Source: a virus | Lineage: Duplodnaviria > Caudoviricetes | Reading direction: 5' to 3' (one strand) | IMG/VR virus record: IMGVR_UViG_3300044723_010151 | Coordinates: 1-34,431 of that record | Length of the DNA: 34,431 nucleotides | In this document: positions 8,563 through 34,169 of the stretch, in pieces | Position numbering within the stretch: the first letter of the stretch is position 1 | Layout: every line of letters begins with the position of its first letter | Program-made: the position numbers and the translations under genes | The notes under the pieces: model-generated | Databases searched by the model: none | What the model was told of the DNA's origin: nothing | The model's input: the letters and a program-made list of their open reading frames with translations, nothing else

Positions 8563-11500
8563 ATGGCTGAAATTAAATTAGGTAGAATTAAATTTATATG
8601 GAAAGGCAATTGGTCGCCTGGGATAGAATATTTTAAAGATGATATTGTTAGAAATGGCGGGAATACATATGTCTGTGTTGCAAGACACGTAAGTTCAGAT
8701 TTTGCATTAGACGAACCTGGTTCTTGGAATACTATTTCAGAAGGACAAGAATGGAGAGGTAACTGGGAAGTTTCAACTCTATATCGTGAAAATGACATTG
8801 TAAAATATAATGGGTTACTCTATATAGCAAATACTGAACACACCAGTATAGATGAAATTTACAGTGGCGGCTTGACTGTTGATTCAGAAAAGTGGGATTT
8901 ATATGGAGAAAGTTTTGAATATACAGGCAATTGGCAAACAACTTATGTTTATAGACTAAACGATCTTGCAAAGTACAATGGAATAACTTATAGATGTATA
9001 GAAGAACACACATCAACTGATACAGAATTTGCAGGTTTAGAAGTTCAACAGGCTAAATGGGAAGAATTTGTTTCAGGTATTTATTGGATGGGTCAATGGA
9101 CAACATCTACGAGATATAAAGTTAACGATGCAGTAAAATATGGCGGACAAATTTATTTGTGCAATACTGGGCATATAAGTTCAGATACAATAGCTAGTGG
9201 TTTAGAATTAGATCAAGACAAATGGACATATTTCCACAAAGGTATAGAATATAAAGGTGACTGGGAAACAAATGTAAGGTATAAAGTAAATGATGTAGTA
9301 AAATACGGCGGAGGTATATGGATTTGTACAATTCCTCACACAAGTTTTCAAGATTTTACAACTGACGTATTTGAACAGTTTGTTGAAGGTTTAGAATTTG
9401 AAGATAGCTGGTCACACACAAAGAATTATCAGGCAGGAGATATAGTAACGTTTGGTGGATATAGTTATATTGCAAAAGTTAACAATAAAAACTACACTCC
9501 GTCTATAAGCGCAGCAGTTTGGGATTTTTTTACCGCAGGTTTTAGATTTAGAGGAGAATGGGGAGAAGATAGTTCTTTACAAGATTACTTTGTAGGCGAT
9601 GTTGTAACAATTGGTAGTTATACATATCTTTGTATATTAGATAATCAAAATGTAAGACCTCCTGATTCAGGAAGATGGTTACGATTAAACAGTGGTATTT
9701 ATTGGAAATCTGATTGGACATCAGGACAATATTATGATACAGGTGATGCAGTTTCATATCAAAACTTTTCTTATATTTGTATATCAAGTCATACAGCCGA
9801 TGAAATCAGTCAACAAAATCGACCAGATCAAACAACTGGATTTGGTAATGCAGCATCTTTTTGGGATTTATTAGGCGGAGGAACAGAAGCTAAAACTTTA
9901 ACAACCTCAGGCGACTTACTATATTACAGTGGAGTTGGACCAGCAAGAATACCAATCGGAGAAGTAGGACAAGTTTTAGCAGTTGATAATCAAGGACAAT
10001 TTCCTGAATGGAAATATCTTGGCACAATTAATAATGTGTATTATGTAGAAGGAACAACAGGTACCGATTTACCAGCTCCGGTATATGGTACAACATTAAA
10101 TCAGCCTTGGAAAACTGTAAGGTATGCTGCAGAACAAGTTGATTTAGGCCCATTGCTACCAAATGCACGATATCTGTTAGAAACAAATAAATCTTTTATT
10201 CAAAATGCTGTAGTAGAATGGGTGAATGATAGAATTGCTGAAGGTACTGGAATCTGGGCTGGATTTACAAATACAAATATTCCATATTGTAGAAGAGATA
10301 TAGGCTTAATTTTAGACGCAATTATTTGGGATATGGGCCATGGTGGAAATGCAAAAACAAGACTTGCAACTTTATCATATTTTGACGAAGCAGGAGCATT
10401 AATACCTGAGATAGCCGATGAATACCAACAATTAGTTGCTGCATTAGAATCTATGAGATTCATAACTGAATACATAATTAGCAACCTTGATTACGTACAA
10501 GTTTCTAATTCTTTTACGCAATTTAAAGACACAACAATTGTTAAAGAATTTGATGCGCAAGAAAAAATAGATAATCTTGTTTCTATCATAAAAACAACTT
10601 TAAACGATACTAACTTAACAAATTTGCCAAAAGAATATAAACCTAATAATACAATTTTTGTAAAAACTGGCATTTTTGAAGAAATTTTACCAATAATTGT
10701 TCCTGAAAATACAGCAGTTGTAGGAGATGAATTACGATCTACAAAAATAGTTCCTAGAGGAAAAGTTACTCATCCAACTGATAGTTATTATAGCAAACAA
10801 ACTTTACTTCATATGAAATCTATTATTTCAGATGTAATTACAAATACTTCAATAACTCCAACTACTGGCAACAATGAATCACAATATTTACAAAGTCCTC
10901 CAGGTACAGTTGGATCTCAAACAAATATAGATAGTATAATAAATAATTCTATAGAAATAAAAGACATTCTAAATAACGGAACAACAAATGCCGATGCAAT
11001 AAATTTTACAGATCCTGGAGTTGACGCAAATAAATTGAACGCAAGAGTTTTGCTACAATTAAATAAAGCATTTATTGTAAATGAATTAACAACATGGATC
11101 AATGCACAAATTTCAGGTAATATAGCACCTTTTACAAGTGCGTTTACATATGATGTTGCAAAGTGCGAAAGAGATGTTGCATACATAGTTGACGCTTTGA
11201 GCTATGATGTACAATACGATTGCGAATGGGCAGTTTACATCATGGCTGAATCCTATTTTGTAGGAGCTGTATCTTCTTTGCCAGCAGGCGAAATAGACGA
11301 AACAGTAGCTGCATACGAACAATTAGCTGATATTGTATCTGATATTGTTGTAGAAAATTATGCTGGACAGGTAACTAATGGATTACCGGCATCATTTACT
11401 GAAGCAGGAACAGTAGATAGTGGAGTACATGTCATATCAGATGCAATCCAAGCTGGTGGGTTAGACAGCTTACCAGGGATAACCTACCCAGATATAACTT

Positions 11501-14500
11501 GGACAAGTGCAGAAGCTCAGATAGCTCATGCAAATATGCTTTCTGCTAAAACAAGTATACAGCAAGAAGTAGTTGCATACATAAAGAAAAATAATTACGA
11601 TCTTGCATTTAATCAGGCCACTTGTTACAGAGATGCAGGATATATGGTAGATGCGCTTGCATATGATATGGCATTATCTACAAATTATCAATCAATACTT
11701 GTAGGAATATCATATTACAGGGGAACAAGTTCTTCTAATTTAGTTTTAGCTGAACAACTTGATGTAACGATAGATGCCGTAAATTATATTGCACAAAAAC
11801 TTCAAATATATGCACCTGGCGGACCAGGTTTAGCGTCAGAAATTATTGTACAAAGTGGCATAGATTACATTGACTATTACATTAACAATATTGGTTTATC
11901 ACCTATTGTTGCAGGTACAAATTACCCTATTACAGACACTAATTACACATATGCAGCAGAAAACATAGAAAAAAATAGAAAATTTTTAGTTGAAGAAATG
12001 GATGCATACATAGATGTTACTTTTTCAGATACTGTTACTGCTACTACTACTGGACAAAATACAATTACAATAAGCGACACATCTTGGTTACAAATTGGTA
12101 CAGCAATAAAGTTTACAGGAACGGTCGGCGGCGGACTTATTGAAGATTTAGAATACTATGTGCTAACGATTGTAGATGGCACAAACTTTAAAATTACCGA
12201 GTCAAGAGATTCTGTAGCAGAAGTAAACCTAGATACTTCAAGTACGTCATTTACTGTCTCATTATCGTATAACTCAGAATTATGTTTAAGAGACGTAAAC
12301 AAATATATCGATGGACTTAAATTTGATTTAATATACGTTGGAAATTATAAAACTTTAAATGCCTCACAATACTATGTCAATGCTGTTACAGGGTCTAAAT
12401 TATTAGATATGTTTTACATGAGGAATGCATCAGGACTGAGAAATTGCACACTGCAAGGATTAGACGGACGATCAGACGGTGATTTGATTAATACACAAAT
12501 TTCTGGATTAACTGATGTAGGACTGTCGGGTACACAACGTCCATTAGCAGGTGCATTTGTAAGTCTAGACCCTGGATTTAATCCAACAGATGAAAGAACA
12601 TGGATATTAACACGGAGTCCGTACATCCAAAATGTTACAACATTTGGAGATGCATGTACTGGTATGAAAGTCGACGGCGAAATTCATGCAGGTGGAAATG
12701 ATTCAATTGTTGCAAACGATTTTACTCAAATTATTAGCGACGGAATTGGATTTTGGGTTTCAAACCTAGGTAGATCTGAGTTGGTATCTGTATTTACATA
12801 TTATTGTCATGTGGGCTATTTAGCAGAATCAGGCGGAAAAGTAAGAGCTACAAATGGTAATAATTCTTATGGGTTATTTGGCTCTGTATCAGAAGGTGTA
12901 GATAATACTGAAGTTGCAATAACTGGTAAAGTTGACAACAGAGCCTTTACAGCAGTAGTTCAACGTGTTATTGCAAGCGGACAAGATATTATTGCAATAG
13001 AATATTTAAATGCAGGTGTTAATTACACGCCATCAGGAACTACTCTGACTGTTTCTGGAACAGGTTACGGAGCGTTAATTGGAAGCGTTAACACTGTAAA
13101 TCAAGGTGTTTATGAAGTACGAATGTTAGATTTAGACGATTCATCTGGAAAGTTTGGCGGTGAAGGATATTATTTTGCTACTAACAGTGCTCAAGAAGGA
13201 AATACAACCCAAATTAGATTAGCTAACACAGAAACTGGTTTAGCAAGTAATCTAATCACACTTGCAGTCTACATTGTAAGCGGTAAAGGAGCAGGCCAGT
13301 ATGGAGTTATAGACACTTATAATCCTACAACAAAATTAGCCGATATTATAAAAGCCAGCGACGGAACTGCAGGTTGGGATCAAATGATTCCTGGTAGAGC
13401 AATCGAAACTTTACTTGATGCAACAAGTGTATATTGGCTTGAACCATTAGTAATTTTTAGCGGATCAGATCAAGATCCAGCAGATTATTCACTTAGAGCA
13501 AAAGGTAGAGCAATTGTTGAAGCTGAACAGGTAATTAGAATAACAATTTTTGATCCAGGCACAGGTTACTCAAGTCCTCCTACTGTTACATTACAAGACC
13601 CTAATAATACTAGTGATGCACCAACAGAAGCAAGAATAGGCAGTGGTATTTTAACCCAACCAACATGGATTAATCGTGGTTTAGAATATGATACAGCAAC
13701 TGTAGAAATTAACGGAGATGGTTACGCAGACTTTTATCAACCAGGTGCATTGATACAGGTTAATAACCTAACAGATCAACCAAAACCCGGATCAAATGTT
13801 GAATTTGCAAATTTACTTAATACCTATTACAAGCTGGTTGCAGTTAGACAACTTACAGGAAGTGGACAATTTGGATTAGATGCTCCATTCAGTTGTCAAT
13901 TACAAATCAGTCCCGCTTTAGAAATTTCTGAAGCTCCGGAGCATGCCGAAGACTTAGAAATGCGTATACGATATAGTCAAATTAGATTAACTGGACACGA
14001 TTTCTTAGACATAGGAACTGGAAATTTTGCTACAACAAATTATCCAGGTCTTCCATTACAAGAGCCAGATCCAGAAAAAGAAACTGTAGAATATGGTGGA
14101 GGCAGGGTATTTTACACTTCAACAGATCAAGATGGAAATTTTAGAGTTGGAAAATTATTTTCAGTTGAACAAGCAACTGGTGTAGCAACCCTAAACGCAG
14201 ATGCATTTAACCTAAGCGGATTACAAGAGTTATCACTTGGAGAATTAGGATTAGGTTCACAAGGTGCTGTAATTAATGAATTTAGTACAGATGCTACATT
14301 TACCGCAGATAGTGACAGTATTGTACCAACACAAAAAGCAATTAAAGCATATATTACATCACAAATAGGCGGTGGAGCATCAACATTAAATGTAAATAGC
14401 ATTACTGCCGGAGAGATTTTAATAGTGGGAACAAGTATAAGCACTACAACAAATAATCAAATTGTAGTAAATCAAAAAATGAACTTTACAAAAGGTGTTG

Positions 14501-14541: not shown

Positions 14542-14552
14542 TGGAGATATAA

Positions 14553-14876: not shown

Positions 14877-14898
14877 TAATAAAGAAGGATAAAATTTA

Positions 14899-15231
14899 AT
14901 GGGACGATATATAACAACAACAGGCACAGCAGCTCCTGTTATAAGAGAAATTTCAGCAGGATATAATGCTCAAGTTAATGATAGAATTTTAGCTAATTCG
15001 GCGTTAGGTCCTTTTACAATTAATTTACCTGCTAATGCATCATTATTTACTAATGATACTATTCAAATAATAGATGTTGGCAAGGCTTTTGCAACAAACA
15101 ATGTTACTTTAGGTAGAAATGGATCTTTGATAGCAGGATTAGATGAAGATTTAGACTTAGATATGAATAGTAGTATCACAACAATCATGTATTCAGGTGC
15201 TACTTATGGGTGGATTATAATTGGAACTTAA
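14899..15231 (+). CDS. Small tail/baseplate fibre-type domain protein, 110 aa
   Basis: FTINLP.....D.I.IIDV...FATNN.T.GRNG..I.G..EDL.LD......Y.GAT.GW is a motif set common in T4-like fibre/baseplate proteins. Confidence 0.65.
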   Translation: MGRYITTTGTAAPVIREISAGYNAQVNDRILANSALGPFTINLPANASLFTNDTIQIIDVGKAFATNNVTLGRNGSLIAGLDEDLDLDMNSSITTIMYSGATYGWIIIGT

Positions 15232-15234
15232 AAT

Positions 15235-16110: not shown

Positions 16111-16111
16111 T

Positions 16112-16996: not shown

Positions 16997-17004
16997 GGAA
17001 TTTT

Positions 17005-17856
17005 ATGGCTAGTTTGCGAAGTTTATTAAATATTAAAGATGCTACAGAACTTAATGGATACAGTCAACCTGCAGAAGGTCAACAGCACTTATTTGCAGTA
17101 ACGTGTCACGTCACAACAAATGATAGTTACTCTGATTTTTGTTGTATGTCTTTCATAGTAGAAGCTGGCGCATCACGTGCAACATTTGATGTGTGGGGAG
17201 GCGGTGGATCTGGTCCTGTAGCTTGCTGTTGTATGTGGGGATCACCTGGTGCTTCTGGAGCATATACAAGGAAATACCAGTGCATAGAACCTGGTCAATG
17301 TTATGCTATCATACTTGGAAGGTCTGCATATTGTACAAATGGTACATCAGGTTGTAATGGTTGTTGGACCTGTGTATGCGGTGCAGATTTGTGTTACACA
17401 CCTTATAAACTAACACTATGTGCCCAAGGCGGCGAAGGAGGTTGTGCTTGTTGTAATGCTCCATGTTGTGGTATGTATCGAACAGGTGGCGAAGACAGGG
17501 GCGGCGAACGACATTCAGGAACTGCTTTTTGTGGTGATTATAATATTCCTGCGGTAAAAGGTTGCTTGTGGCATCGTTGTTACAATAATGGTTGTTACAA
17601 TAAATACTTTATACCATATCCAGGCGGAATAATTAATAGATGCGGAGGAGTTGTGATGTCAAGACCTCATGATTCAAGATGGTTTAGTGGATGGGCCAGT
17701 TGTGTAGTCCAATATATTGGCGCACCCATAGGTGGTGGTGTAAGATGGCATGGATATATACCAGGTGTCGGAGGAGGTGCTGCACAAATCTGTGGCGGTG
17801 GTTGTATATGCGGCACACCAGGAACACCTGGACTAGTAAGAATTACATGGACATAA
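17005..17856 (+). CDS. Cys-rich, Gly-rich adhesin-like protein 3, 283 aa (29 Cys)
   Basis: Likely start is ATG 17005 (MASLRSLL, matching both paralogs, with SD AAGGA), not the ORF-track 16789. Motifs FDVWGGGGSG, CCC, PGASGAY, LCAQGG, PYPGG, PGLVRITW. Confidence 0.75.
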   Translation: MASLRSLLNIKDATELNGYSQPAEGQQHLFAVTCHVTTNDSYSDFCCMSFIVEAGASRATFDVWGGGGSGPVACCCMWGSPGASGAYTRKYQCIEPGQCYAIILGRSAYCTNGTSGCNGCWTCVCGADLCYTPYKLTLCAQGGEGGCACCNAPCCGMYRTGGEDRGGERHSGTAFCGDYNIPAVKGCLWHRCYNNGCYNKYFIPYPGGIINRCGGVVMSRPHDSRWFSGWASCVVQYIGAPIGGGVRWHGYIPGVGGGAAQICGGGCICGTPGTPGLVRITWT

Positions 17857-17862
17857 TAAATA
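17855..17862 (+). promoter_or_regulatory. Possible T4-type late promoter (AATAAATA)
   Basis: Overlaps the upstream stop, with SD AAGGA before ATG 17892. Confidence 0.5.
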
Positions 17863-17891
17863 GATAATTAAGATAAGGATAAGGAAAAATA

Positions 17892-18590
17892 ATGGCAAAA
17901 CAGATTTCGCATGAGTTTACATATAGTATGCCAGACGAGTATTTAAAAGATACCTCAACTTTAGGGTTAACGGGTACTTTTACATACAATGGACCAGATA
18001 AATTTTATGTTTTTGTTGATATAGCAACTAATAAAATAGACGTAAATGCTGGATATATGAAAGATGATATTACTGATAGTAACTTAACTCAACTATTAGA
18101 ATTGAATGCAAATAACGGTAAGGACTATCCGGTACTTGTTGATGCTACACAAGAACCAATTATTGCTACTCTAATAGTACCTCAAGAATATGATTCGGGA
18201 TTATGGCCGCAGAAACAATATAAATTAGATGGAGACGATACAGTTTATTTTGAAAGGCCTGAGCAAACGCCAGTTGATCATACATATGAGCTTGAATTAA
18301 TTACATATAATAAAGCAACAAGTTCATGGGTAAAACCCTTTCCGTGGAAAAAACCACACATAGATTGGAACATGATGAATCAAATAATTCAAATGAATAT
18401 TTCTAATATTGATAACGATATAGCAAGTGGAAATTATTCAGATGAAGAAATTGTAACTTTAAAAGCTCACCAAGATGAATTTAGAAATCTTACTACAAAA
18501 TTTGCCGGACGGGATCCGTGGCAAATACCATTCCCAGAATGGCCTTTTGCAGAGCCTGCCGAACCACCTGCCGAACCACCTGCTGTCTAA
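17892..18590 (+). CDS. Tail fibre assembly/chaperone-like protein, 232 aa
   Basis: C-terminal W..........L......FRNL..KF.G.DPW.IPFPEWP resembles the 'R..LRDLP....P....WP' end of phage tail assembly chaperones. It lies directly after the adhesin-like genes. Confidence 0.55.
   Translation: MAKQISHEFTYSMPDEYLKDTSTLGLTGTFTYNGPDKFYVFVDIATNKIDVNAGYMKDDITDSNLTQLLELNANNGKDYPVLVDATQEPIIATLIVPQEYDSGLWPQKQYKLDGDDTVYFERPEQTPVDHTYELELITYNKATSSWVKPFPWKKPHIDWNMMNQIIQMNISNIDNDIASGNYSDEEIVTLKAHQDEFRNLTTKFAGRDPWQIPFPEWPFAEPAEPPAEPPAV
18555..18584 (+). repeat. 12-bp tandem repeat CCTGCCGAACCA x2.5 encoding a PAEP tail
   Basis: cctgccgaacca cctgccgaacca cctgct, read directly from the sequence. Confidence 0.85.
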
Positions 18591-18594
18591 CATT

Positions 18595-18630
18595 ATAAGA
18601 GGTTAAGATATTTCTATTTTAACCTCTTAT
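18595..18630. terminator. 16-bp stem-loop (putative terminator or RNA processing/stability element)
   Basis: ATAAGAGGTTAAGATA-TTTC-TATTTTAACCTCTTAT: 12 perfect bp plus 4 bp containing one G-U, and a 4-nt loop. It is followed only by a weak U-tract (TCTATCTTCT). Confidence 0.6.
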
Positions 18631-18643
18631 TCTATCTTCTAAT

Positions 18644-18651
18644 TATAAATA
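18644..18651 (+). promoter_or_regulatory. T4-type late promoter (TATAAATA) for the glycosyltransferase-carbamoyltransferase pair
   Basis: Exact consensus just downstream of the hairpin, with SD AAGGT before ATG 18676. Confidence 0.75.
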
Positions 18652-18675
18652 AATTGTAATTTTTAAAAAGGTAAT

Positions 18676-19707
18676 ATGCGATCCAAAGCGTTTTTTATTA
18701 ACGGTGGAGCAGGAAGAGTTATATGTTCAATTCCTGCTTTTGAAAAGTATGCCGAAGAAACAGATGATAATTTTATTATTGTATGTGAAGGAGGAACAGA
18801 TTTTTATAAAGGTCATCCTTTACTACACAATAAAGTTTATGATCATTGGCACAAGGATTTATTTGTTGATAAAATTAAAAATAGAGATATAGAAACTCCT
18901 GAGCCATACAGAATATGGGAATATTATAATCAAAAATGTAATTTATCTGAAGCATTTGATATAGCTATAAACAAAAAAGGTAAACGAAAATTAGATAAAC
19001 CTACAATCTATTTTAATTCAGATGAAACTATTATTGGTAAAAATCTTATCAAAGAAGTAACCGAAAAAACAGAAAAAGAAAATACTATTGTATTTCAGCC
19101 ATTTGGCAGAGGTGTACAAAGTCATGGTAATTTTATCATAGATAGTAGTGGAAGGAGCTTTGATTTTAACAATGTCTTAGAATTTATTAAAAAATTAGGT
19201 AAGGATTTTGGCATTATTTTAATGAGTGAATTTCCTTTAAATCTTGAAGCAGAAGGAATTAATATACCTGTTGCTCAACCTAGAGATCTTAATATTAGGC
19301 AATGGGCATCTATTATTAAAGAATCATCTTATTTTTTTGGATGCGACAGTGTAGGACAACATATTGCATATTCTTGTAACAAGCCAGGAACTGTTGTTGT
19401 TGGATCTACTTTTGCTGAAAATATTTCTTATCCGGACTACGAAAAATTTGATATTCAAGATATGGGCGAAGGAAAAAGAATATACGATCCTATTAGGATT
19501 ACTATGGACGAAGTTTGTAATAGAAACAACGACGGAATAATGCGTATGAATGATTTAATAGAAGATGTAATTATTAAATCAATAAAAACAAATTTTGCTA
19601 AATGGCATAATATAGAAAATAATGTAAACAAAGTGGTAAAATTTGAGCAAATAGAAAAAAAGAACACTTTTAAATTACAAACTGGAACAGGAATTATAGA
19701 GAAATAA
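18676..19707 (+). CDS. GT-B glycosyltransferase, GT9 (heptosyltransferase)-like, 343 aa
   Basis: N-terminal FINGGAGRVICSIP (compare G.GD...S.P), IVFQPFG, and C-terminal IRQWASIIK.S..FFGCDSVGQHIAY...KPGTVVVGST matching the GT9 'G.DSG..H.A.A...P.V...G.T' signature. Confidence 0.7.
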   Translation: MRSKAFFINGGAGRVICSIPAFEKYAEETDDNFIIVCEGGTDFYKGHPLLHNKVYDHWHKDLFVDKIKNRDIETPEPYRIWEYYNQKCNLSEAFDIAINKKGKRKLDKPTIYFNSDETIIGKNLIKEVTEKTEKENTIVFQPFGRGVQSHGNFIIDSSGRSFDFNNVLEFIKKLGKDFGIILMSEFPLNLEAEGINIPVAQPRDLNIRQWASIIKESSYFFGCDSVGQHIAYSCNKPGTVVVGSTFAENISYPDYEKFDIQDMGEGKRIYDPIRITMDEVCNRNNDGIMRMNDLIEDVIIKSIKTNFAKWHNIENNVNKVVKFEQIEKKNTFKLQTGTGIIEK

Positions 19708-19708
19708 T

Positions 19709-21499
19709 ATGGTTACAGATTCAGATTTTTGGGTTGCTGCTTTAACAAGAGGACATAACGGCGGAGTATGTTTGTTAAAAAACGGGGAAATTGTTTTTGC
19801 AATCGAAGAAGAAAGGCTATCTCGCCACAAATACGACGGTGGACCTCTAGCTTCTTTAGTTAAAATATTAGACTATACTAACAGATTAGATTATTTAGTT
19901 ATTGCTCATACACATTCATTGTATTCACCTGATACACCTAAAATTGATTTTACAGGCGATGACGTTTATACAGGGCTAGCAAGGAAACTTGGACTGATAA
20001 GTAGAGATAGAAGCTTGTTACCAAATCATCCGCAAGTTTTAGATTCAAGTCAGTATCATCATAATTTACATGCTGCTTGTGCATTTTACAGATCTGGATT
20101 TAATGATGCTGTTGCGTTGATTGTTGACGGTGCTGGAACAATATCTCGTTTTCAAGCAGACGGTGTAGAGTACGGTGGTTGGGAAACTGAATCGATGTTT
20201 TGCTGCGAGTACCCGAATACAATAAAGTGTATTTATAAGCACATAGGTTCTAGGGGCCCTCATAGAGCAGACTGTATACTTGATGAAAGTGATAAAAATA
20301 ATAAATATCCTGTCTATGTAACAGATAGAGGTGGTATTGTAAAAGTATACGAAGCTGTTACTCAATATTGCGGTTTTGATGCAATAGAAGCCGGAAAAAC
20401 TATGGGGTTATTTCCATATGGTAAAAAGAATCCTAATATTCCTCCATTATTTGACGATAGTTTAGACATTCCATTGTCTAATAGAAATATGATAATTCCT
20501 ACATATCCTAATGGTGCAGATATAAATGACAAACTTAATTCAGAATTAGCATTTAGTGCAGATAAAGAATTATCTACATTAAACAATAGAAGAGATTTAG
20601 CTTATCATTGTCAAATTGAAACGCAAGAACAGGTCCTGAAATTAATTAAAAAAGCGGTTAAATTGAGCGGAAATAAAAATGTAGTTTTGTCAGGAGGTTA
20701 TGGACTCAATTGTGTTGCTAATTACTATTATCTAAATGAAATAAAAGACTTAGATATAAACTTGTACGTAGAACCTATTTCTAGTGATGCCGGTACAGCA
20801 ATAGGAGCAGCTTTGTGGGCTAATAACATTATGTCAAATAATCCTAACAAATATAAAAAGCAAACAAACTTATATTTAGGCTTAGATCATTTTTACACAA
20901 ACGAAAAAATAACTAACATAGTAGAAAAGTTAGAAGTAAATGTAACAGAAATATCTAAAAAACAAGTAATTGATATTATTTTAGATAAAAATATTGTTGC
21001 TATTTTTCAAGGAAAGTCTGAAAATGGTCCAAGAGCACTAGGTAACAGGAGTTTATTGTTTGATCCACGACACAAAGACGGAAAAGATTTTGTTAACAGA
21101 GTTAAACATAGAGAATATTTTAGACCCTTTGCAGGAACTATTTTACAAGAAGATGTACATGATTGGTTTGATTTACGAGGAATGGCAGACTCTCCAAGCA
21201 TGATGTATGCAGTAAATTGTAAACCCGGTGTTGCAGAAAAGATTCCATCAATTATTCATGTAGATGGAACATGTAGGATTCAAACAGTTACAAAAGAACA
21301 AAATTTACATTTTTATGAACTTATAGAACTTTTTAAAGAAAAAACAGAAACTCCTATTCTTTTTAATACCAGCTTTAATTTAGGAGGCCAGCCTCTTGTT
21401 GAAACACTTGAAGATGCTATATGGACTTTAAAACAAAGTGAATTAGAATATTTATACTTGCCAGAATTTAATTATTTAATCACATGTCCTAATACATAA
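19709..21499 (+). CDS. O-carbamoyltransferase, NodU/CmcH/TobZ family, 596 aa
   Basis: Full motif set: EEERLSRHK, HH.LHA..AFY.SGF, VDGAG, GKTMGL..YG, SGGYGLNCVAN, P.SSDAGTAIGAA, E.GPRALGNRS, VKHRE.FRPFA, HVDGTCRIQTV, NTSFN..GQPLVET. Confidence 0.93.
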   Translation: MVTDSDFWVAALTRGHNGGVCLLKNGEIVFAIEEERLSRHKYDGGPLASLVKILDYTNRLDYLVIAHTHSLYSPDTPKIDFTGDDVYTGLARKLGLISRDRSLLPNHPQVLDSSQYHHNLHAACAFYRSGFNDAVALIVDGAGTISRFQADGVEYGGWETESMFCCEYPNTIKCIYKHIGSRGPHRADCILDESDKNNKYPVYVTDRGGIVKVYEAVTQYCGFDAIEAGKTMGLFPYGKKNPNIPPLFDDSLDIPLSNRNMIIPTYPNGADINDKLNSELAFSADKELSTLNNRRDLAYHCQIETQEQVLKLIKKAVKLSGNKNVVLSGGYGLNCVANYYYLNEIKDLDINLYVEPISSDAGTAIGAALWANNIMSNNPNKYKKQTNLYLGLDHFYTNEKITNIVEKLEVNVTEISKKQVIDIILDKNIVAIFQGKSENGPRALGNRSLLFDPRHKDGKDFVNRVKHREYFRPFAGTILQEDVHDWFDLRGMADSPSMMYAVNCKPGVAEKIPSIIHVDGTCRIQTVTKEQNLHFYELIELFKEKTETPILFNTSFNLGGQPLVETLEDAIWTLKQSELEYLYLPEFNYLITCPNT

Positions 21500-21502
21500 A
21501 TA
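21495..21502 (+). promoter_or_regulatory. Possible late promoter (CATAAATA) overlapping the stop codon
   Basis: NATAAATA followed by SD GAGGT and ATG 21522. Confidence 0.55.
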
Positions 21503-21521
21503 ACATATAAAGAGGTAAGAC

Positions 21522-21926
21522 ATGGATCCTGTTAAAAAATTTTTTGATCTTGGTGCTAATAATTCAATTCTTATAAAAAATAATGCTGGATTTTCTCATA
21601 GAGGACCATGGAAACAAGTAGGAACAAAAAACACATTTGATAGATGGTATATAGGAGAAATTTCAGCTGCTGAATATACAATAAGTGTAGATTATAACAC
21701 TGAGAATAGAGAAATTTTAAAATGTTTAATTATAGCAAGCACAAACACTGCAAATATTCATGTGTATGCAAGATCATTTCTTAATAGAGAATTGGTAGAT
21801 GTCGTAGCGGTTGTTAATCAGTCGTATGTTGACGTAAGCATAGAACCAAAAGCACCTCAAATTTACTCTGCAAAATTTATTTTTACTGCACAATATTTTC
21901 AATCACAAAATCCTATTACCGCTTAA
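21522..21926 (+). CDS. Small beta-rich virion/hypothetical protein, 134 aa
   Basis: SD GAGGT. SAAEYTISVD.....EILKCLI.A....A....YAR resembles repeated beta-sandwich units of T4-like tail/baseplate proteins. Confidence 0.7.
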   Translation: MDPVKKFFDLGANNSILIKNNAGFSHRGPWKQVGTKNTFDRWYIGEISAAEYTISVDYNTENREILKCLIIASTNTANIHVYARSFLNRELVDVVAVVNQSYVDVSIEPKAPQIYSAKFIFTAQYFQSQNPITA

Positions 21927-21930
21927 TTTA

Positions 21931-21938
21931 GCTAAATA
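21931..21938 (+). promoter_or_regulatory. Possible late promoter variant (GCTAAATA)
   Basis: TAAATA core in a short intergenic gap before SD GGAGGT and ATG 21956. Confidence 0.5.
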
Positions 21939-21955
21939 TTTACATTGGAGGTATT

Positions 21956-22866: not shown

Positions 22867-25800
22867 ATGGCAAAAACTATTATAAAAAATTATGTTTTTA
22901 AACCAGGTATAGGTTATTTAGATAATAAATTACCTAATGCCTGGAATCTATTTTTACTTAATAAGGATTTTATTTTATCAGAAATTTTATCTTATATAAA
23001 TCAAGAAATAGCGGATGTTGAAAAATGCCAAAGAGATATAAATTACATCATAGAAGGAGCTGCAAATGACGCTGCATTAAATACTAATTATAATGCAAGA
23101 TTTTTAGGTTATACTGAAGTAAATAGTTTAGATTTATCAAATACTGTAATAAGAACTATAAACAGAGCAAGAAATGCTATTTTAAATTTAAATGTAACCA
23201 GCAGTAGTAATCTTGCTGTTAATAATATCAATGCTTTTTTTGATCAACTTATAGAGATTATAAATGACGGAAGAGATGCTGCACAACCTATTTTTATTAC
23301 TCCTGGAGTTACTACACCAGTAAATAGCACTGCAGCAAAGGATCAATTATTAAATAACATAGATTTTATTGTTGCAGAAATAAATGCCTACGTTGCATTT
23401 ACGTATCCTAATGCAGACCATAATGTAGATAAATGTTCAAGAGACATAAAATATGCCATCGAAGCATTAGCTTATGATATTTTGTATGGAGGAAACGCTG
23501 CAACTTATGATCAATCAAAATTCTTTTTTTATAATACTAACGAAAATTTTCCTGGAATTGATCCGACTCATCGAATTCAAACCGTAAGTGCATATCAACA
23601 TTTTCAAACTATCATACAAGATATAGTACAAGGAATTGGAGTAACTCCAAGCGACGGAAATTTAGCTGAACAAAATGTTAGTGGAAATGTTGCAACTGCA
23701 TCAGAAGCATCTGTACTAAATGCTTTAGTAGAAATTACAATAAATGTTCTAAGTGCAGAAACTTCTGCAGAAGCTAATCAAGTATTATCAAATATTAGTC
23801 GCACACCTCCTGTTGTAACATTATGGGCAATAGCTGAATTACAGGATGTCTACCTTGAAATAATTGATAATCAAGAAGATATAGTAACCGCTATCACATG
23901 GCCAAGTAATTATACGTACAATGCAGAAAAGTGTACTCGAGACGCAAATTATGTATTAGATGCTTACCTTTATGATCTAAGATACGGAGGCAATGAGCAG
24001 ACTTTAGAAACAGTGAAATATTATTGGGACGAAGATGTAGCTCAAGTTGATGGTACTCGGTTACCGGAAATTGACACTCATGCTTTTATAGGTGAGTTAT
24101 TAAATGATTTTATACTTTTAAATATTGAATTTCCAAGATTAGGCACGGTGCCGCAAAGCATTGATTTAAGTTATACAAGCGAAAATGATGCATTTACACG
24201 AATTAGTACTCTTACTAATACAACAGTAGCAATTATTGAAAATGGATTAGCATCTGCTCCAACAAAAGAATATAACGATGTCGGAACAGTAAAATTTACT
24301 GGAATGTATAATCTAGAAGAAATTTTACTTATAACTAATGTTAGTAAAAATGAAATTATTTACAACTTCGGAACGTCTGTTGCAGGCGGAACACTAAGAA
24401 AAAGTAAAAATTATGATAGAGATTTTCCAGCTTTTAATCAAACAACAGATTTTGTTTTAACTTTAACTTTAAATTATAATACAGAGTCTCATACTGCTGA
24501 CGATGATTTACAACTATTTGTAGAACAAGTTGAAAATGGTAAAAGTATTTTAACCACTAGACCGTATAATTTTGGCACAGATGCTATTGAAAGAAACAGA
24601 GTAGCAAATCCTCTATCAATGTTAGATGCTGATTTTGAATACGGATTGCAACCTACGAAATGGGCAGCAATAGGAACATTAAGAGGATATCCTTCAATAT
24701 ATGAAATACCAGGTACAGACACTCCTGTCCAAAACATAACCACGGATGCAAGTGCAGGAACTTTTGGTATTGGTCAATCATTAATAACTGTAACTACAGT
24801 AGGTCCGCATCAATTGTATCCAGGAGATCCTTTTACAATTAAAGCATTAGAAGATTCAATTGCAGGAGCTGCAAGAGCAGAAGGATCGTTTACTGTTGTT
24901 ACTACACCTAGCTCGTCTAGTTTTACATATTATGCTAAGGCTAAAGTAGGTACTGTAAATGGGCAGGTAATAGCAACAAGTTATACTCAATTAAGGAAGG
25001 CAGGATTTTATTCTGGATCAAATATTGGCAATGCAACGTTTGACATTTTAAGTCAAGGAGCTGATGCAACAATAACCTTAGAATTAGATCTACTTGCAGG
25101 AAACAATCTTATACCTTTTGATGGAGTAGCACCAGACATTGGATCTCCAACTGATTCTGTAACAGTTACTGATTTTCCAACTGGAACACAAGTAACATCG
25201 GTTCAAGCAACAAGTGCAGGCGGTGGTACTTACATATCAGCACAAGCAGATGGCGATTGGCCTGCAGGATCTGATTTTATTGAAGTAATTGATGCTACCG
25301 GAATAATAGAAGATTTAGCAATTGACAGAGGAGATGGTACAGCAACATTTGTAGAAAGTATAGTAGGTAATAGATTATTTTTGACCAATCCTCTTACATC
25401 AACTTTAATTGGTTATACTACTCTATATGAAAATATTAGCGCTCAGAATGAAATTTCGTCAGGAGCTAATGCTTTATTTGACATTACAGCAACTGGAGCA
25501 AATTATTCAGTTACAATTGTCGCAACAGGACAAGATTACGGCGCAGGTAATAGACTCTTTGTGCCTGGAAACCAATTAGGAGGATTAATAAATGTTCACG
25601 ATTTGTTAATCAATGTAGAAACTGTCGTTGGTAATGGAAGCATAGATACAATTTCAATTTCAGGAACAGCTTTTGACGGTAATGCAACAATTGAAAATGT
25701 AGTAGGAATTGTAGAAAATAATTCAGGTTCTGGAGCAATTTTTGATGTAAGCTATGCAGATAACATTTATAGTGTCAGTGTAAGTTCGCCAGATGTTTCA

Positions 25801-28800
25801 TTTGGATACGAACTAAACGACAAGATTTTAATAAGTGGAACAACATTTAATAATGGCGATAATACTAATGATTTAATACTTACTGTAAGTCAAACAGGAT
25901 TAAATGGTTCTGTTGTAAATGTGAGTGTAGCAGGCACTGCTCCAGATGCAATAGTAACTTACCTTAATCCATCGTATACAACAACCGGTGTTGGCATTTT
26001 AACTTCGTATGATATTACCAGAACTGGCGTTACGTATTCTTTAAATTTCGCCAATACACAAGATTTTGGGCCGGCTGATACTATTACTATCTTAGGAACA
26101 GAGCTAGATGGAGCTGCACCTGCTAATGATTGCGAAATAACAGTTAACACGGTAAATGTAAATGGAGCAATAGAAACTTTTAGTATCGTAGGGACTGCAG
26201 TGAATATAGATTCAGCTGCTGATTTAGCTGGAACAAATTTTGATGGCATTAATGCAACATTTAACATAGAGCTATCAGCAGGAAGTTATGTAAATGCTAC
26301 AGTAAATCAACCCGGTAACAATTTTGCAGTTGGACAAGAAATAATTGTTTCTGGGTCAGATTTACTTGGAACAAGTCCTACAAATGATTTAACATTACAA
26401 GTTGTAAGTGTTAATACCGATTACAGTTTAGCAACTGTATCTGTTTCGCAAGGAATAGCAGCAGGAGGTATAGGATTATTTACAAATGTTAGTCCAACTA
26501 TTGATAATCCATCTGGAAGTAATTCTATTTTTTCTGTTCTTAGATCAGGCCCAACTTATAGTGTTAATGTTATTAATGGAGGAATAGGTTATAGGATTGG
26601 TGACAGATTAATTATTACAGGAAATTTATTAGGTGGAAGTTCGCCGGCAAATGATTTAATTATAAGAATTTTAGAAGACTATGATGGGCAAATTTTAGAT
26701 GATTCAACAAATAGATTTGAACTTATATACGAATCTACAACTACAAGTTTTTTAGTTAATTTTATATCAACTGTAAGAGTAACTGAATTATCTACAGGCG
26801 ATCTTACGCAAGGTACTGAAATAGATTTTACAGCGTTAGCATCTCTTGAAATTAACTTCCAAAATGCACACGGGCTTGTACCCGGAGACACATTTATTGT
26901 GGGGATAAATTCAGATGATGGTGTAAATAATCATCTATTAGCATCGGGATCTTTTTTTGTTTCAGACGTTCCTGAAACAAATCTATTAAGATATCAAGCA
27001 CGTTCAGTAGGTTTTATTGACACAGATATACAAACTATTGAGACCCCTACAACACAATATAATGCAGGTGAGTGGGAATGGTTAGAATCAAATGGATTTA
27101 TAGATGATTCTCCTGTTACGTATATTACTATATTCTGGAATGAAGAAATCATCTATCAAGTAAACAGTTACGACAATCCTATTGAATATAATAATGTTAG
27201 ACTAACAAATCCAGATTCTTACACTTTGCCAGATGGAACAAAGAGGTACGAACGAGACTCGTTGCAAAATAATTTACCACCTACAATTATAAGCTATCAA
27301 GTAACAGAAGTAATAATCACAATAGAAGCACAAGATCCTATTAATGGCGACATTTATCCTCGACCTGATTCATTTTTTATTCATAGACCATATGACGGCG
27401 GTGTACAATTAGGAACTGGTGGTCCGCAACATGGGGCGCAAGCTATTAGACAAAGTAAAAAATATATTAGATACCAATCTGGTAAAGGTATTATGTACAC
27501 AACTGGTGCTTTATTTGCGCCAAGTTATGATTTAAGAAGTGTAACTGCTAATGGTATTGAAGTTAATAGTTTAATAACTATAGTAACCGATGACAACGAT
27601 CACGGCGTGCAAGAAGGTGGCGTGATAAGACTGTTAGGTATAGAAACACCAGGATACAATAGTGGTCCACAAACTGCAGTTCCTCCGGTCTTTGATTACA
27701 CTGTTGTATCAGTTATAGACGAAAGAACCTTCGCAGTAAGATCACAAAGGAGATTAGGATCAACAACAGCTAAATTAGGGTTTGATGCTCAAATGTCTGT
27801 TGTTTCATGGCATGGAGCAACTGTTAGATCTGGAATTTTCGATGATCAAAACGGATTATTTTGGGAATACGATGGAACAAATATTAATGTAGTGCAACGT
27901 ACTGGTACAAAACAAATTTCTGGAACAATTGCAATTGACCAGAATACAAACTTGATGATTGGAACAAATACAAAGTTTAGAGATCAATTAAAAGCAGGCG
28001 ATAGAATTATTTTAAAAGGCATGACTCATGTAGTTACTCATGTTGATAGCAATACAGAATGCACAATTTCCCCTGATTGGCGTGGTGTTGTAAATATCAG
28101 TGGTGCAAAAGCAAATTTGATAGTTGAAAAAAGAGTAAAACAATCTGACTTTAATCAAGATAGATTAGATGGAACAGGACCTAGCGGATATGATATTGAT
28201 ATTGCAAAAATGCAAATGATTGGAATACAATACAGTTGGTACGGAGCTGGATTTATTGATTACATGTTAAGAGGAACAGATGGTAATTTTGTATTTGCCC
28301 ACAGAATGCGAAATTCTAATGTTAACACTGAAGCTTTTATGCGTTCTGGAAATTTACCGGTTAGATACGAAGTGACAAATGAAGGCCCATCTGGAAAACT
28401 TAAAAATAGTATGGATCTTACCCAAACAACATGTACCTTATATGATAGTAGCTTTTTTCCTAATAACGGAGTGATATATATAGATAATGAAGTTATACAA
28501 TTTACTGGTAATGATATAGAAAATAATCAATTAACAGGATTGATTAGAGGATCTTCCTTAACTAATTTTCAAGCAGGTGCAATAAGAAACTATACAGCAG
28601 GACCTGCAGCAAGTCATCAAGCAGACACGGGAATAATTTTAATATCAACAACAATAACGCCGCTTATTAGTCATTGGGGGAGTGCATTTTTGACAGATGG
28701 TGGCTTTGACGAAGATCGTGGATACATTTTTTCATATACTGTTTCTCAACTATCAATTTCAACTACTGCTCAAACAGCATTTTTAATTAGACTTGCACCG

Positions 28801-29829
28801 AGTGTTTCTAATGCGCTAGTTGGTGACTTAGGAGAAAGAGAACTTTTAAATAGAGCACAGCTCTTATTGCAAGGAATCGAAATTACAAGCGATACTGGCT
28901 CAGGAGGTATTGTTATCGATGGAATATTAAACCCGCAAAATTATCCAACAAATCCTTCTGCTATTACTTGGTCTGGTTTATCGAATCAAGCACAAGGAGG
29001 ACAGCCAAGCTTTGCACAAGTTGCTGCTGGAGGAGCAATCGATTGGGGTGGCGGTGCACCTGTAACAGCTACAGCAACTGTAGAATCAAGTATAGATACG
29101 GGTTTTGTATTTAATGGTATTCAAAGAGATAGATATAGCCCACTTCCCTTATTGTTATCAGAGTTTAATAATAATCCTATATTAATAGGATCAATAATAT
29201 ATTCTCAAAACAATGATGTTTTTACAGATGCAGGAGAAACATTCTTTGTAACAAATATTATTCAATTTCCAAATTTTGGGGAAGTTGATATTTATTATAA
29301 TTCTAGTTTAGGAAATCAATCATCTCAAGCTAACACAAATGCAAATACTGATTTTAAATTTATATATGTAGCACCAAGTGGTAAAGTAAGTAAACTACTA
29401 TTTACTAAAAGTTCATGGGAAGCGGCTGGTGCTTCAATTGGTACTCCTGTATCAACAACAGATAGTAATTGGCCAGCAGGAACAGCAGTTTCAAATGTAC
29501 AATTTTTAAAGCACGGACAAGTTGAATTTTATGAAGTATCATTCAACAATACTTCAGTGAACAACATATCGCCAGGCAATACAGTAACATTTGAATTTGG
29601 TGTTGCATCTTATGCTCAGCCTGGAGAAACTGTTTTTTCTTTTATTGCAAATCCTGGAGAAAGATCAGTCCTTGGTCTTGAGGAATTAAAAGAACTTACG
29701 AATACACCGTTAGGTGGTAGAGGTATCTATCCAAACGGACCGGATATTTTAGCCATAAATGTTTATAAAGTAACTGGGTCTGCAGTAAATAGTAACATTA
29801 CATTAAGATGGGGAGAAGCACAAGCTTAA
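22867..29829 (+). CDS. Giant modular virion protein, 2320 aa, with N-terminal CxRD helical repeats and five ~85-aa beta repeats
   Basis: Uninterrupted ORF, Thr/Gly/Asn-rich. Contains ILLITNV....IYNF, DADFEYGLQPTKW, RQSKKYIRYQSGKG and YSWYGAG...GNLPVRYE blocks of the kind seen in T4-like virion proteins. Confidence 0.8.
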   Translation: MAKTIIKNYVFKPGIGYLDNKLPNAWNLFLLNKDFILSEILSYINQEIADVEKCQRDINYIIEGAANDAALNTNYNARFLGYTEVNSLDLSNTVIRTINRARNAILNLNVTSSSNLAVNNINAFFDQLIEIINDGRDAAQPIFITPGVTTPVNSTAAKDQLLNNIDFIVAEINAYVAFTYPNADHNVDKCSRDIKYAIEALAYDILYGGNAATYDQSKFFFYNTNENFPGIDPTHRIQTVSAYQHFQTIIQDIVQGIGVTPSDGNLAEQNVSGNVATASEASVLNALVEITINVLSAETSAEANQVLSNISRTPPVVTLWAIAELQDVYLEIIDNQEDIVTAITWPSNYTYNAEKCTRDANYVLDAYLYDLRYGGNEQTLETVKYYWDEDVAQVDGTRLPEIDTHAFIGELLNDFILLNIEFPRLGTVPQSIDLSYTSENDAFTRISTLTNTTVAIIENGLASAPTKEYNDVGTVKFTGMYNLEEILLITNVSKNEIIYNFGTSVAGGTLRKSKNYDRDFPAFNQTTDFVLTLTLNYNTESHTADDDLQLFVEQVENGKSILTTRPYNFGTDAIERNRVANPLSMLDADFEYGLQPTKWAAIGTLRGYPSIYEIPGTDTPVQNITTDASAGTFGIGQSLITVTTVGPHQLYPGDPFTIKALEDSIAGAARAEGSFTVVTTPSSSSFTYYAKAKVGTVNGQVIATSYTQLRKAGFYSGSNIGNATFDILSQGADATITLELDLLAGNNLIPFDGVAPDIGSPTDSVTVTDFPTGTQVTSVQATSAGGGTYISAQADGDWPAGSDFIEVIDATGIIEDLAIDRGDGTATFVESIVGNRLFLTNPLTSTLIGYTTLYENISAQNEISSGANALFDITATGANYSVTIVATGQDYGAGNRLFVPGNQLGGLINVHDLLINVETVVGNGSIDTISISGTAFDGNATIENVVGIVENNSGSGAIFDVSYADNIYSVSVSSPDVSFGYELNDKILISGTTFNNGDNTNDLILTVSQTGLNGSVVNVSVAGTAPDAIVTYLNPSYTTTGVGILTSYDITRTGVTYSLNFANTQDFGPADTITILGTELDGAAPANDCEITVNTVNVNGAIETFSIVGTAVNIDSAADLAGTNFDGINATFNIELSAGSYVNATVNQPGNNFAVGQEIIVSGSDLLGTSPTNDLTLQVVSVNTDYSLATVSVSQGIAAGGIGLFTNVSPTIDNPSGSNSIFSVLRSGPTYSVNVINGGIGYRIGDRLIITGNLLGGSSPANDLIIRILEDYDGQILDDSTNRFELIYESTTTSFLVNFISTVRVTELSTGDLTQGTEIDFTALASLEINFQNAHGLVPGDTFIVGINSDDGVNNHLLASGSFFVSDVPETNLLRYQARSVGFIDTDIQTIETPTTQYNAGEWEWLESNGFIDDSPVTYITIFWNEEIIYQVNSYDNPIEYNNVRLTNPDSYTLPDGTKRYERDSLQNNLPPTIISYQVTEVIITIEAQDPINGDIYPRPDSFFIHRPYDGGVQLGTGGPQHGAQAIRQSKKYIRYQSGKGIMYTTGALFAPSYDLRSVTANGIEVNSLITIVTDDNDHGVQEGGVIRLLGIETPGYNSGPQTAVPPVFDYTVVSVIDERTFAVRSQRRLGSTTAKLGFDAQMSVVSWHGATVRSGIFDDQNGLFWEYDGTNINVVQRTGTKQISGTIAIDQNTNLMIGTNTKFRDQLKAGDRIILKGMTHVVTHVDSNTECTISPDWRGVVNISGAKANLIVEKRVKQSDFNQDRLDGTGPSGYDIDIAKMQMIGIQYSWYGAGFIDYMLRGTDGNFVFAHRMRNSNVNTEAFMRSGNLPVRYEVTNEGPSGKLKNSMDLTQTTCTLYDSSFFPNNGVIYIDNEVIQFTGNDIENNQLTGLIRGSSLTNFQAGAIRNYTAGPAASHQADTGIILISTTITPLISHWGSAFLTDGGFDEDRGYIFSYTVSQLSISTTAQTAFLIRLAPSVSNALVGDLGERELLNRAQLLLQGIEITSDTGSGGIVIDGILNPQNYPTNPSAITWSGLSNQAQGGQPSFAQVAAGGAIDWGGGAPVTATATVESSIDTGFVFNGIQRDRYSPLPLLLSEFNNNPILIGSIIYSQNNDVFTDAGETFFVTNIIQFPNFGEVDIYYNSSLGNQSSQANTNANTDFKFIYVAPSGKVSKLLFTKSSWEAAGASIGTPVSTTDSNWPAGTAVSNVQFLKHGQVEFYEVSFNNTSVNNISPGNTVTFEFGVASYAQPGETVFSFIANPGERSVLGLEELKELTNTPLGGRGIYPNGPDILAINVYKVTGSAVNSNITLRWGEAQA
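25459..26670 (+). repeat. Five tandem ~85-aa repeats G.NA.F.V.....Y.V.....G..Y..G..I.I.G..L.G..P.NDL.I.V, protein-level
   Basis: Units start SGANALFDI, SGSGAIFDV, VGILTSYDI, DGINATFNI, SGSNSIFSV and end HDLLINV, NDLILTV, NDCEITV, NDLTLQV, NDLIIRI. Confidence 0.75.
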
Positions 29830-33002: not shown

Positions 33003-34169
33003 TTACACATTATCGGTTTTAGCCTTAAGAGCTTTACTTACACTCTGTCTTTCAGGCACAGACTCACCAGCGACAGTTGTAATATTTGTATTGTTAATAA
33101 ACGTACCTTTTTGCGTACTTCTATCATTAGTTTGAGTCATTGTCATACGAACATTATCTTCCATCTTAATCCAGCGTCTTCCGTCATATCTAAATAATCT
33201 ATTTGGAATCATATCTGTCCTTAAAAAATAATCTCCTTTTACACTACCTTCAGGAAAAAGAGTACCATGACCAAAAATTTCGCCATTAGGGGCTATTCCA
33301 TCACCAAGTAAGTACCCTGTATATCCTGTCCTTTCTGGAGTTTGCATAACTCTATCTGCTAATTCATTTGCCACGCTCGCATCTAAGTCTGTTAAATCAG
33401 CTGTAACTAACTCTACCCTACCTTCGTCATTTGTTTGCAATGTAAAATAATGTCCAGTTTCGTAACCACTTTTCTTTGCATCAGCTTCTGCTTGTGCAAT
33501 CACTGCATTATTAACTTGCATGTCTTTTTCATATGTTGATAATAAGTCTCGTAGACTACCTGCAGCAGGAACTTCTTCGTCCATTGGTAGATCAAGAATT
33601 TCTTTAAATTCTTGACTATCTACTATCTGCTTGCATTTTAATCTATACAAATGAGGATACCATGTTGGACTGTATCCTTCTGCTGCTCTACTTACTTCTT
33701 CAACAACATAATAACTCTTGAGTGCAACATGAAAATCATTTGCAGCGTATTCATCCTTCATGTGTGGTAATTCAATAACATCTCCGCTCATTATTTTGCG
33801 ACCTATTGTTTTTACCGAACTATTAATATGAATAGTCATAAAAAGAGTGTCGTTATTCAAAAATAATCCAAATTGACTTAAATTAAAATCAATATCTTGA
33901 ACGCTATAAATTCCTCTAATTGTATAGACATCCGGATCGTATTTCCTATCTCTATTTTCTAAAAATAGCAAATCTTGTATGTTTGTTTCAGTTATAGCAT
34001 CATAGTGAGGAATGTCTGCAGTTGCATCTTCCTCAGTTGGATTTTTTGGTCCTAAATATTTGTGGATATTTACATCTGTTCCTCCAACAGTAAACATTTC
34101 AAATATTCGTGCATCTATAAAATTGTAATCATTCCCTTTACTGGGTTTATATAAAGATATTCTAGGCAT
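33003..34169 (-). CDS. gp14: T4 gp14-like neck / head completion protein, 388 aa
   Basis: GG.DV.IHKYLG, DLLFLENRDRKY, LSQFGLFL.ND.LF..IH, GR....GDVIELPH, YVVEEV, WYPHLYRLKC are gp14-like motifs. Confidence 0.75.
   Translation of the reverse strand: MPRISLYKPSKGNDYNFIDARIFEMFTVGGTDVNIHKYLGPKNPTEEDATADIPHYDAITETNIQDLLFLENRDRKYDPDVYTIRGIYSVQDIDFNLSQFGLFLNNDTLFMTIHINSSVKTIGRKIMSGDVIELPHMKDEYAANDFHVALKSYYVVEEVSRAAEGYSPTWYPHLYRLKCKQIVDSQEFKEILDLPMDEEVPAAGSLRDLLSTYEKDMQVNNAVIAQAEADAKKSGYETGHYFTLQTNDEGRVELVTADLTDLDASVANELADRVMQTPERTGYTGYLLGDGIAPNGEIFGHGTLFPEGSVKGDYFLRTDMIPNRLFRYDGRRWIKMEDNVRMTMTQTNDRSTQKGTFINNTNITTVAGESVPERQSVSKALKAKTDNV

Follow-up and report, generated by a model that had tools for sequence, protein, structure and literature searches.

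The described systems closest to the domain analysed here are the phycocyanin alpha subunit CpcA (PF00502) and the globins BBAG-1 and BBAG-3. The BBAGs are described as CXRD globins that occur with heme oxygenase and bilin reductase in non-photosynthetic lineages, need no lyase to take up bilin and show no photoactivity, and the same source describes CXRD as the chromophore (bilin-attachment) motif (PMC10151467). In alpha-phycocyanin, Asp87 and Tyr129 are reported to bind PCB (PMC12692400). Photocobilins and the bilin-binding domain of ApcE also contain a bilin-type globin fused into a larger protein, and these are cellular sensor or antenna proteins. For viruses, the occurrence of hemO and a bilin reductase in phages of non-cyanobacterial hosts is called 'still enigmatic' (PMC11480375), and a role of the tail fibre itself in light-dependent cyanophage adsorption has been raised as a question (PMC6628666).

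Here, we describe a CxRD domain of about 140 residues, related to phycocyanin alpha, that is repeated in two giant proteins encoded among the neck and tail genes of a myovirus. The window, the whole stretch of DNA analysed, is a 34,431-base IMG/VR fragment. We propose, with a rough probability of 0.58, that these phycocyanin-alpha-type units in a tail-region protein bind bilin covalently via the CxRD cysteine. The homology, the fold, the conservation pattern, the insertion and the co-occurrence of genes in relatives are supported directly. The features concerned are as follows.

22867..29829, plus strand: 2320-aa giant protein; C-terminal part is 'virion structural protein' phrog_5838, and the globin units follow the first ~20 residues
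22933..23268, plus strand: unit 1 (residues 23-134), shortened phycobiliprotein-type; CxRD Cys54, codon 23026
23014..23901, plus strand: two-unit cassette of ~296 residues (about 50-345), missing from single-copy relatives
23320..23751, plus strand: unit 2 (residues 152-295), complete phycobiliprotein-type globin fold; CxRD Cys190, codon 23434
23833..24243, plus strand: unit 3 (residues 323-459); CxRD Cys356, codon 23932
10162..10605, plus strand: CxRD unit of the 1992-aa tail-fibre-like protein; Cys576, codon 10288
11038..11451, plus strand: CxRD unit of the 1992-aa protein; Cys868, codon 11164
11524..11814, plus strand: CxRD unit of the 1992-aa protein; Cys1021, codon 11623
12241..12384, plus strand: CxRD half-unit of the 1992-aa protein, after an inserted beta-rich segment; Cys1241, codon 12283
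33003..34169, minus strand: structural gene phrog_11591, by which the phage groups near jumbo phages of the Atu_ph07/PA5oct type

The initial annotation gave the three cysteine codons of the 2320-aa protein and their peptides exactly, and its count of seven copies in two giant proteins is borne out by the four further codons in the 1992-aa protein (ORF 8563-14541). A six-frame scan of the window found a single other CxRD, in a stop-filled frame, and unit 2 as query retrieves the six other units at E values from 5e-11 to 3e-4. BLAST joins the two proteins only around the repeat region, in agreement with the earlier claim that they are otherwise non-homologous. The name 'virion protein' is a prediction from the phrog_5838 label of the C-terminal part (E 7e-237 against PHROGs) and from the tail-gene neighbourhood, with no proteomics basis. 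CxRD motifs account for three of the six cysteines of the 2320-aa protein; the other three are not conserved among relatives, which rules out an intrachain disulfide in this protein. The product of 33003-34169 is 65-67% identical to those of bilin-gene-bearing relatives and 36-38% identical to those of its nearest cultured phages (Phosso, Atu_ph07 and PA5oct), and cyanophages are absent from the 30 matches listed of 93 records. By these comparisons, the window's phage appears to belong to a jumbo lineage distinct from Kyanoviridae.

Several neighbouring genes deserve mention. Two paralogous tail-fibre-like proteins (3409-8526 and 8563-14541) contain 7-8 CBM5/12 repeats, with CxRD units in the second only. 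Three Cys/Gly-rich phrog_4205 paralogues occupy 15235-17856; the ORF at 16789-17856 overlaps the one before it, and since its match to the family begins at residue 73, its true start is probably later. Within the tail-gene block, 18676-21499 encodes a glycosyltransferase-like protein (phrog_8954; the likeness is our reading) and a carbamoyltransferase. This pair is conserved in the relative G051:C57 and may modify virion or host-surface sugars.

Pfam returned nothing relevant for the whole giant proteins or for single units, and the PF00502 profile had no match anywhere in the window. No unit reaches the gathering cut-off of PF00502, the best scoring 21.9 bits against a CpcA profile. In PDB searches with single units, phycocyanin alpha appeared at E 0.4 or weaker, which is not significant, and a six-unit profile reached 0.07 at best. 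With an alignment of 65 units, all 43 PDB matches at E values up to 10 were phycobiliproteins (best 5.7e-4). Comparison by hhalign with four CpcA/CpcB sequences gave 92% (E 6e-7), and a larger profile gave 94% for CpcA versus 48% for CpcB; the alpha subunit appears to be the better fit. The initial annotation had let its reading depend on a significant profile-profile relation to the globin/phycobiliprotein clan, and these values provide one. The sequence KCxRDIGY...GG stands in register between the units and CpcA in both the PDB profile search and hhalign. The CpcA profile exceeded 10 bits in 420 of 1605 units versus 1 of 1511 reversed. The CpcA median of 21.3 bits (2.4 reversed) fell to 4.4 when the triad was masked, and the sequence signal is thus concentrated in the CxRD triad. 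An ESM Atlas search gave no usable match. No stand-alone cellular form was found among proteins of 65-289 residues, where the 13 matches had no Pfam domain and lay mostly on short contigs.

An AlphaFold2 model of unit 2, built from phage rows alone, has six helices (pLDDT 94.9). Phycobiliproteins or ApcE make up the top 8 of 48,161 chains compared with it (Z 12.1-14.8, rmsd 2.0-2.6), on a scale where chance can bring helical folds to Z 13-14. The model aligns with allophycocyanin over residues 37-159 at an rmsd of 2.0. Phycobiliproteins rank above all other globins and are followed by sensor globins and photocobilins; heme-sensor globins come just below at Z 11.5, photocobilins reach 11.4 and the ApcE domain 13.3. 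In Foldseek, 37 of 38 rows were titled phycobiliprotein or phycobilisome, none of them at E below 0.02. A globin-like A-B-E-F-G-H fold nearest to phycobiliproteins is therefore present in unit 2, and this was repeated in a second search. In a model of residues 1-548, three helical units pack together (pTM 0.70) and only unit 2 matches phycobiliproteins in full, so the fold result holds for unit 2. The CxRD motif lies at the start of helix E in all seven window units, in register with phycobiliproteins. BFVD models of Kyanoviridae proteins with the domain reach TM values up to 0.90.

The phage units share the globin core with CpcA from about residue 37 on and differ from it in several ways. They lack the N-terminal X-Y helices: matches begin at residue 33-39 of the alpha and beta subunits, and a single-copy unit is preceded by about 24 residues of its protein. 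Asp replaces Arg93, which we take to be an alpha-beta contact in phycocyanin. A loop stands in for the F' helix, the G-H loop is long, and D55, N61 and Y71 are new invariants. Unlike CpcA, the phage unit is part of larger virion proteins, which contain 1-37 copies of it; being a repeated virion module also sets it apart from photocobilins and ApcE. The domain would act like a phycobiliprotein chromophore domain, yet it falls outside PF00502, being below the cut-off and without X-Y helices.

A profile search matched 1642 of 1.84 billion representatives (clusters at 50% identity), with 1 to 37 units per protein; our family analysis used 150 listed of these 1642 and the 13 from the 65-289-aa search. 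Among 50,697 GenBank phage records, one search gave 141 matches and another 353. Save for one marine single-cell virus in each, all carriers were cyanophages (352 of 353 named as such), including the cultured S-PM2, S-RSM4, P-HM1 and P-HM2, and they are annotated as having the domain in tail fibre, baseplate or structural proteins. The Kyanoviridae proteins called 'structural', 'short tail fibre', 'gp7-like' or 'YapH' belong to the same domain family, and their annotation is silent on the domain. Ten top multi-repeat matches of the wider search are unnamed or 'hypothetical'. We found no description of a CxRD virion domain in the literature within reach, which excluded subscription papers and bioRxiv supplements. 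A domain confined to cyanophages is ruled out by the jumbo relatives described below, which have non-cyanophage affinities and include G051:C57, without psbA. The mobile phycobiliprotein-type domain of the initial annotation is upheld with this correction.

The complete C+R+D triad is kept in 1498 of 1595 homologous units (C/R/D 96/96/99%), which have a mean identity of about 25%. The triad had been called invariant and under selection. It is invariant in the window's seven units and not in the family at large, and the expectation of selection stands, since free variation is not seen at this level of divergence. We compared 56 Cys-less units from 30 proteins with 1531 Cys-bearing units. Loss of the cysteine is accompanied by a fall in R from 97 to 49%, D from 100 to 66%, Y71 from 99.6 to 75%, T90 from 83 to 44% and K40 from 58 to 23%. 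D55, G59, G60, N61 and N11 are unaltered in these units, and identity to the consensus outside the motif is 0.285 versus 0.280 in Cys-bearing units. In 32 of 59 cases the cysteine is replaced by F, Y or W. Because Arg, Asp, Tyr71 and Thr90 erode together with the cysteine while scaffold residues stay, we infer that the triad with Y71 and T90 may be switched off as one unit, as a ligand pocket would be. In the global alignment with alpha-phycocyanin, T90 falls opposite Tyr129 and Y71 opposite Tyr110, in a stretch where alignment confidence is low. No conserved His is found among the conserved columns of the family. Counted from the GGN/NTN motif, the three units of the 2320-aa protein each deviate at one of the two secondary positions, with Phe in unit 2 and apparently Glu in unit 1 at Tyr71 and Glu in unit 3 at Thr90. 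The three units of P-HM2 have CxDD instead of CxRD. In one orthologue of the 1992-aa protein (L086), the cysteine is gone from three of four units.

The mobility proposed earlier for the module is seen in both its insertion into a shorter form of the protein and a cassette common to two tail genes. Six domain-free homologues from other phages (931-1685 aa) align only from residue 472-572 on. Among 76 full-length relatives, counted as distinct sequences with near-duplicates included, a single unit is present in 59 and three units in 17; the triad is kept in 103 of 110 units, and 10 of the 76 have one cysteine in the whole protein. In the alignment, single-copy proteins correspond to the N-terminal half of unit 1 and the C-terminal half of unit 3, and the two-unit cassette sits inside the single ancestral unit. 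The best non-family match of the 296-residue cassette is a two-unit stretch encoded by a different tail gene in related phages (34% over ~306 aa, 138-147 bits), compared to about 37 bits for the weakest of the single-copy family members. Since the cassette matches this different tail gene far better, the three-unit form is likely the product of an exchange in which tail genes swapped segments at the conserved motif. Simple tandem triplication is ruled out, because the cassette resembles a different tail gene and splits the ancestral unit; the three repeats of the initial annotation are all present and need only this correction. Six single-unit relatives (L019, L035, L054, L067, L073 and L082) have a beta-rich insertion of 100-200 residues in the helix B-E loop within the N-terminal 300 residues, the same loop that takes the cassette. 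A similar insert precedes Cys1241 in the 1992-aa protein.

Bilin genes are absent from the 34-kb window fragment. No heme oxygenase (HO) or bilin reductase (FDBR) was found in 50 short relatives, which are only 6-33% complete and hence uninformative. Longer relatives do have them. G051:C57, a 335-kb contig binned in a bacterial MAG and syntenic with the window, encodes three repeat proteins, heme oxygenase and bilin reductase one gene apart, a 5-aminolevulinate synthase (alaS) over the cut-off and a proteobacterial FdxA; psbA was not found in it. The reductase of pelagiphage Mosig shares 53.5% identity with the one encoded here. A nitrilase-family gene lies between hemO and the reductase, and positions 1-95000 hold an unusually rich metabolic set: PEP carboxykinase, alternative oxidase, a phosphate ABC transporter, IscU/IscA/NifU, a pseudoazurin-like protein, IMPDH and ClpS. 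G059, a 358-kb genome estimated at 100% completeness, has a three-unit orthologue and alaS. These two and G063 are long jumbo relatives with alaS, heme oxygenase and bilin reductase and without psbA, and thus show the BBAG-like context of a CXRD globin with both genes. By the published description of BBAGs, rather than by sequence comparison, the phage domain is not a BBAG as defined: BBAGs are stand-alone and cellular, inside a bilin gene cluster, whereas the phage domain is in tail proteins (1590-2933 aa in the relatives) 30-215 kb from hemO-pcyX. The MAG labels were set aside as hosts, the three genome-collection loci being phage-like contigs inside MAGs. From alaS, we infer an alphaproteobacterial host for the jumbo relatives, following what PMC11480375 reports of this gene.

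A search with the reductase found ten contigs with the G051-type enzyme. The domain is present in all five of at least 90 kb, each also with heme oxygenase, and in none of the five shorter ones. A Mosig-type PcyX scan gave contigs only up to 30 kb, which were left out of the counts. Sixteen long contigs formed a set independent of bilin genes; they were picked by the C-terminal motif of the 2320-aa protein among the first 80 entries in a list of 120 loci. HO and FDBR occur together in two of eight with the domain and in none of eight without it, or in 2/3 versus 0/6 at a completeness of at least 50% (one-sided p about 0.08 by hand, one clade). All four domain-bearing long genomes not chosen via bilin genes (G051:C57, G063, G064 and G065) have psbA or HO with FDBR, and G065, a near-complete carrier without HO/FDBR, has psbA. 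The distant jumbo relative G067 (57% complete) has no domain, bilin genes or alaS. Domain carriers are phages with a cyanobacterial host or a bilin pathway of their own, in co-occurrence counts that are small and share ancestry. In G065:C1, the repeat gene and psbA seem split by stops or frameshifts, possibly assembly errors (8000-13500, 85700-86600, 171000-171900).

Pathway and motif do not always go together. CxRD is kept in three of seven units of G051:C57, where it is lost in the orthologue of the 2320-aa protein, and in five of nine units of G059. Mosig (hemO-pcyX) and P-SSM2 (pebS) have no CxRD unit even with unfiltered HMMs, the domain is missing from four of five PebS cyanophages tested, and PebS matches 31 records versus 353 with the domain. 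Strict coupling is ruled out by these phages, and because they have no unit the domain cannot be the sole reason for phage bilins. In Mosig, hemO and pcyX lie directly before neck genes (L249:354-4681), with a putative ferrochelatase 3 kb upstream, and another bilin-binding structural protein may exist in this phage.

The cyanophages differ from the window's jumbo lineage in that many of their units have a second cysteine and some of the phages have cpeT. T-type lyases are reported to act at the beta-153 site (PMC10452541). In a set of 12 cyanophage genomes, cpeT occurs in five of seven with the domain and none of five without it (one-sided p about 0.03 by hand, kinship uncorrected), and at least 21 of 29 named cpeT phages are also among the repeat matches listed. 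Several cyanophages have the gene some 1-4 kb upstream of the fibre gene that contains the repeats (S-RSM4, W01, G064 and G065; in S-RSM4, L088:7016-7540 and 8494-21942); in S-WAM2, S-PM2 and P-HM2 the two are far apart. The three domain-bearing jumbo relatives have no cpeT. The second cysteine, at profile column 129 in L091 and other cyanophage units, is at the start of helix H; its position resembles the beta-153/155 bilin site, or it could be a disulfide partner.

Under the proposed covalent attachment, the jumbo phage's pigment would likely be made during infection by its own alaS, heme oxygenase and PcyX-type reductase, as encoded in relatives. The synthase would boost heme supply, hemO would yield biliverdin and the reductase PEB or PCB; cyanophages would take bilin from the host. 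The A-ring vinyl or ethylidene of the bilin would add to the cysteine during particle assembly, probably without a lyase, as in BBAG-1/3 (PMC10151467). Lyase-free loading is proposed because the three jumbo relatives lack cpeT. Arg, Asp and the family-specific Tyr71/Thr90 would hold the pigment. With the X-Y dimerisation helices gone, the units would form no phycobilisome and would ride on the particle.

Bilins have antioxidant properties. The most likely purpose is a rigid pigment coat that would absorb light and quench oxidants around the tail in sunlit water. Such a photoprotective or antioxidant coat fits the varying copy number and the inclusion of non-photosynthetic hosts, and the range of 1 to 37 copies would go well with an effect that depends on dose. 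Second in likelihood comes a light-sensitive gate that would control adsorption. P-HM1 and P-HM2 are reported not to adsorb in the dark, while P-SSM2 still does (PMC6628666), and the domain is present in the first two and absent from the third. A gate would fit this difference, which compares two phages with one on different hosts. It is weakened by the photoinactivity reported for BBAGs (PMC10151467), the CxDD units of P-HM2, and light-enhanced adsorption of P-SSM2 as well (PMC6628666). A broader proposal, in which pigmented aquatic myoviruses would use alaS/hemO/pcyX (or cpeT, pebS, pcyA) partly to chromophorylate tails and the fibre would be a light gate, seems doubtful to us.

The captured globin could also do no more than give fibres a rigid helical spacer or scaffold, with a triad needed for folding and no ligand. 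The survival of Cys-less units with an intact scaffold, the loss of the triad in whole orthologues, tandem copies up to 37 and the packing of three units in one model would all suit a spacer. However, a structural triad would not vanish as a block beside unchanged scaffold residues, a free cysteine in 96% of units would be unusual for an extracellular protein, and non-cyanophage relatives pair the domain with bilin genes; we consider a ligand-free spacer unlikely. A pocket for another ligand (heme or porphyrin, a metal ion, or a host surface molecule), making the domain an iron lure or adhesin, is somewhat less probable still. Coupled loss reveals a pocket and not the identity of its ligand, the family invariants D55 and Y71 are not phycobiliprotein residues, heme-sensor globins rank close in the fold search, and alaS in relatives would raise heme as well as bilin. 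Against these points, the residues kept are exactly those given as the bilin-attachment motif (PMC10151467), the conserved columns lack a conserved His, and the nearest sequences and folds are biliproteins.

Inter-chain disulfides cross-linking fibre subunits, paired in a cyanophage subset with the second cysteine at the start of helix H, appear improbable. The second cysteine is present in 139 of 840 full units and in none of 36 without the first, as a pairing would predict, but the first cysteine stands alone in 665 of the 840. Cross-linking would not account for R, D, Y71 and T90 being lost together with the cysteine, and the second cysteine also falls at the second bilin site of the beta subunit (low-confidence alignment). 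Least probable is a chance or convergent likeness of a helical repeat to phycobiliproteins. PF00502 matches no unit, single-sequence PDB matches are no better than E 0.4 and the sequence signal hinges on the triad, all of which would suit a chance likeness; yet the position of the motif and the complete fold both coincide with those of phycobiliproteins, every one of the 43 profile matches is a phycobiliprotein, and the CpcA profile separates units from reversed sequences.

If true, covalent bilin loading of the tail protein would give the first biliprotein known within a virus particle. It would be a partial answer both to the question of why phages of non-cyanobacterial hosts carry hemO and a bilin reductase and to that of tail-fibre involvement in light-dependent cyanophage adsorption. 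The family would be a large undescribed branch of bilin-type globins, found in many cultured cyanomyoviruses and amounting to 1642 clusters at 50% identity, and the domain may yield new self-loading biliprotein scaffolds.
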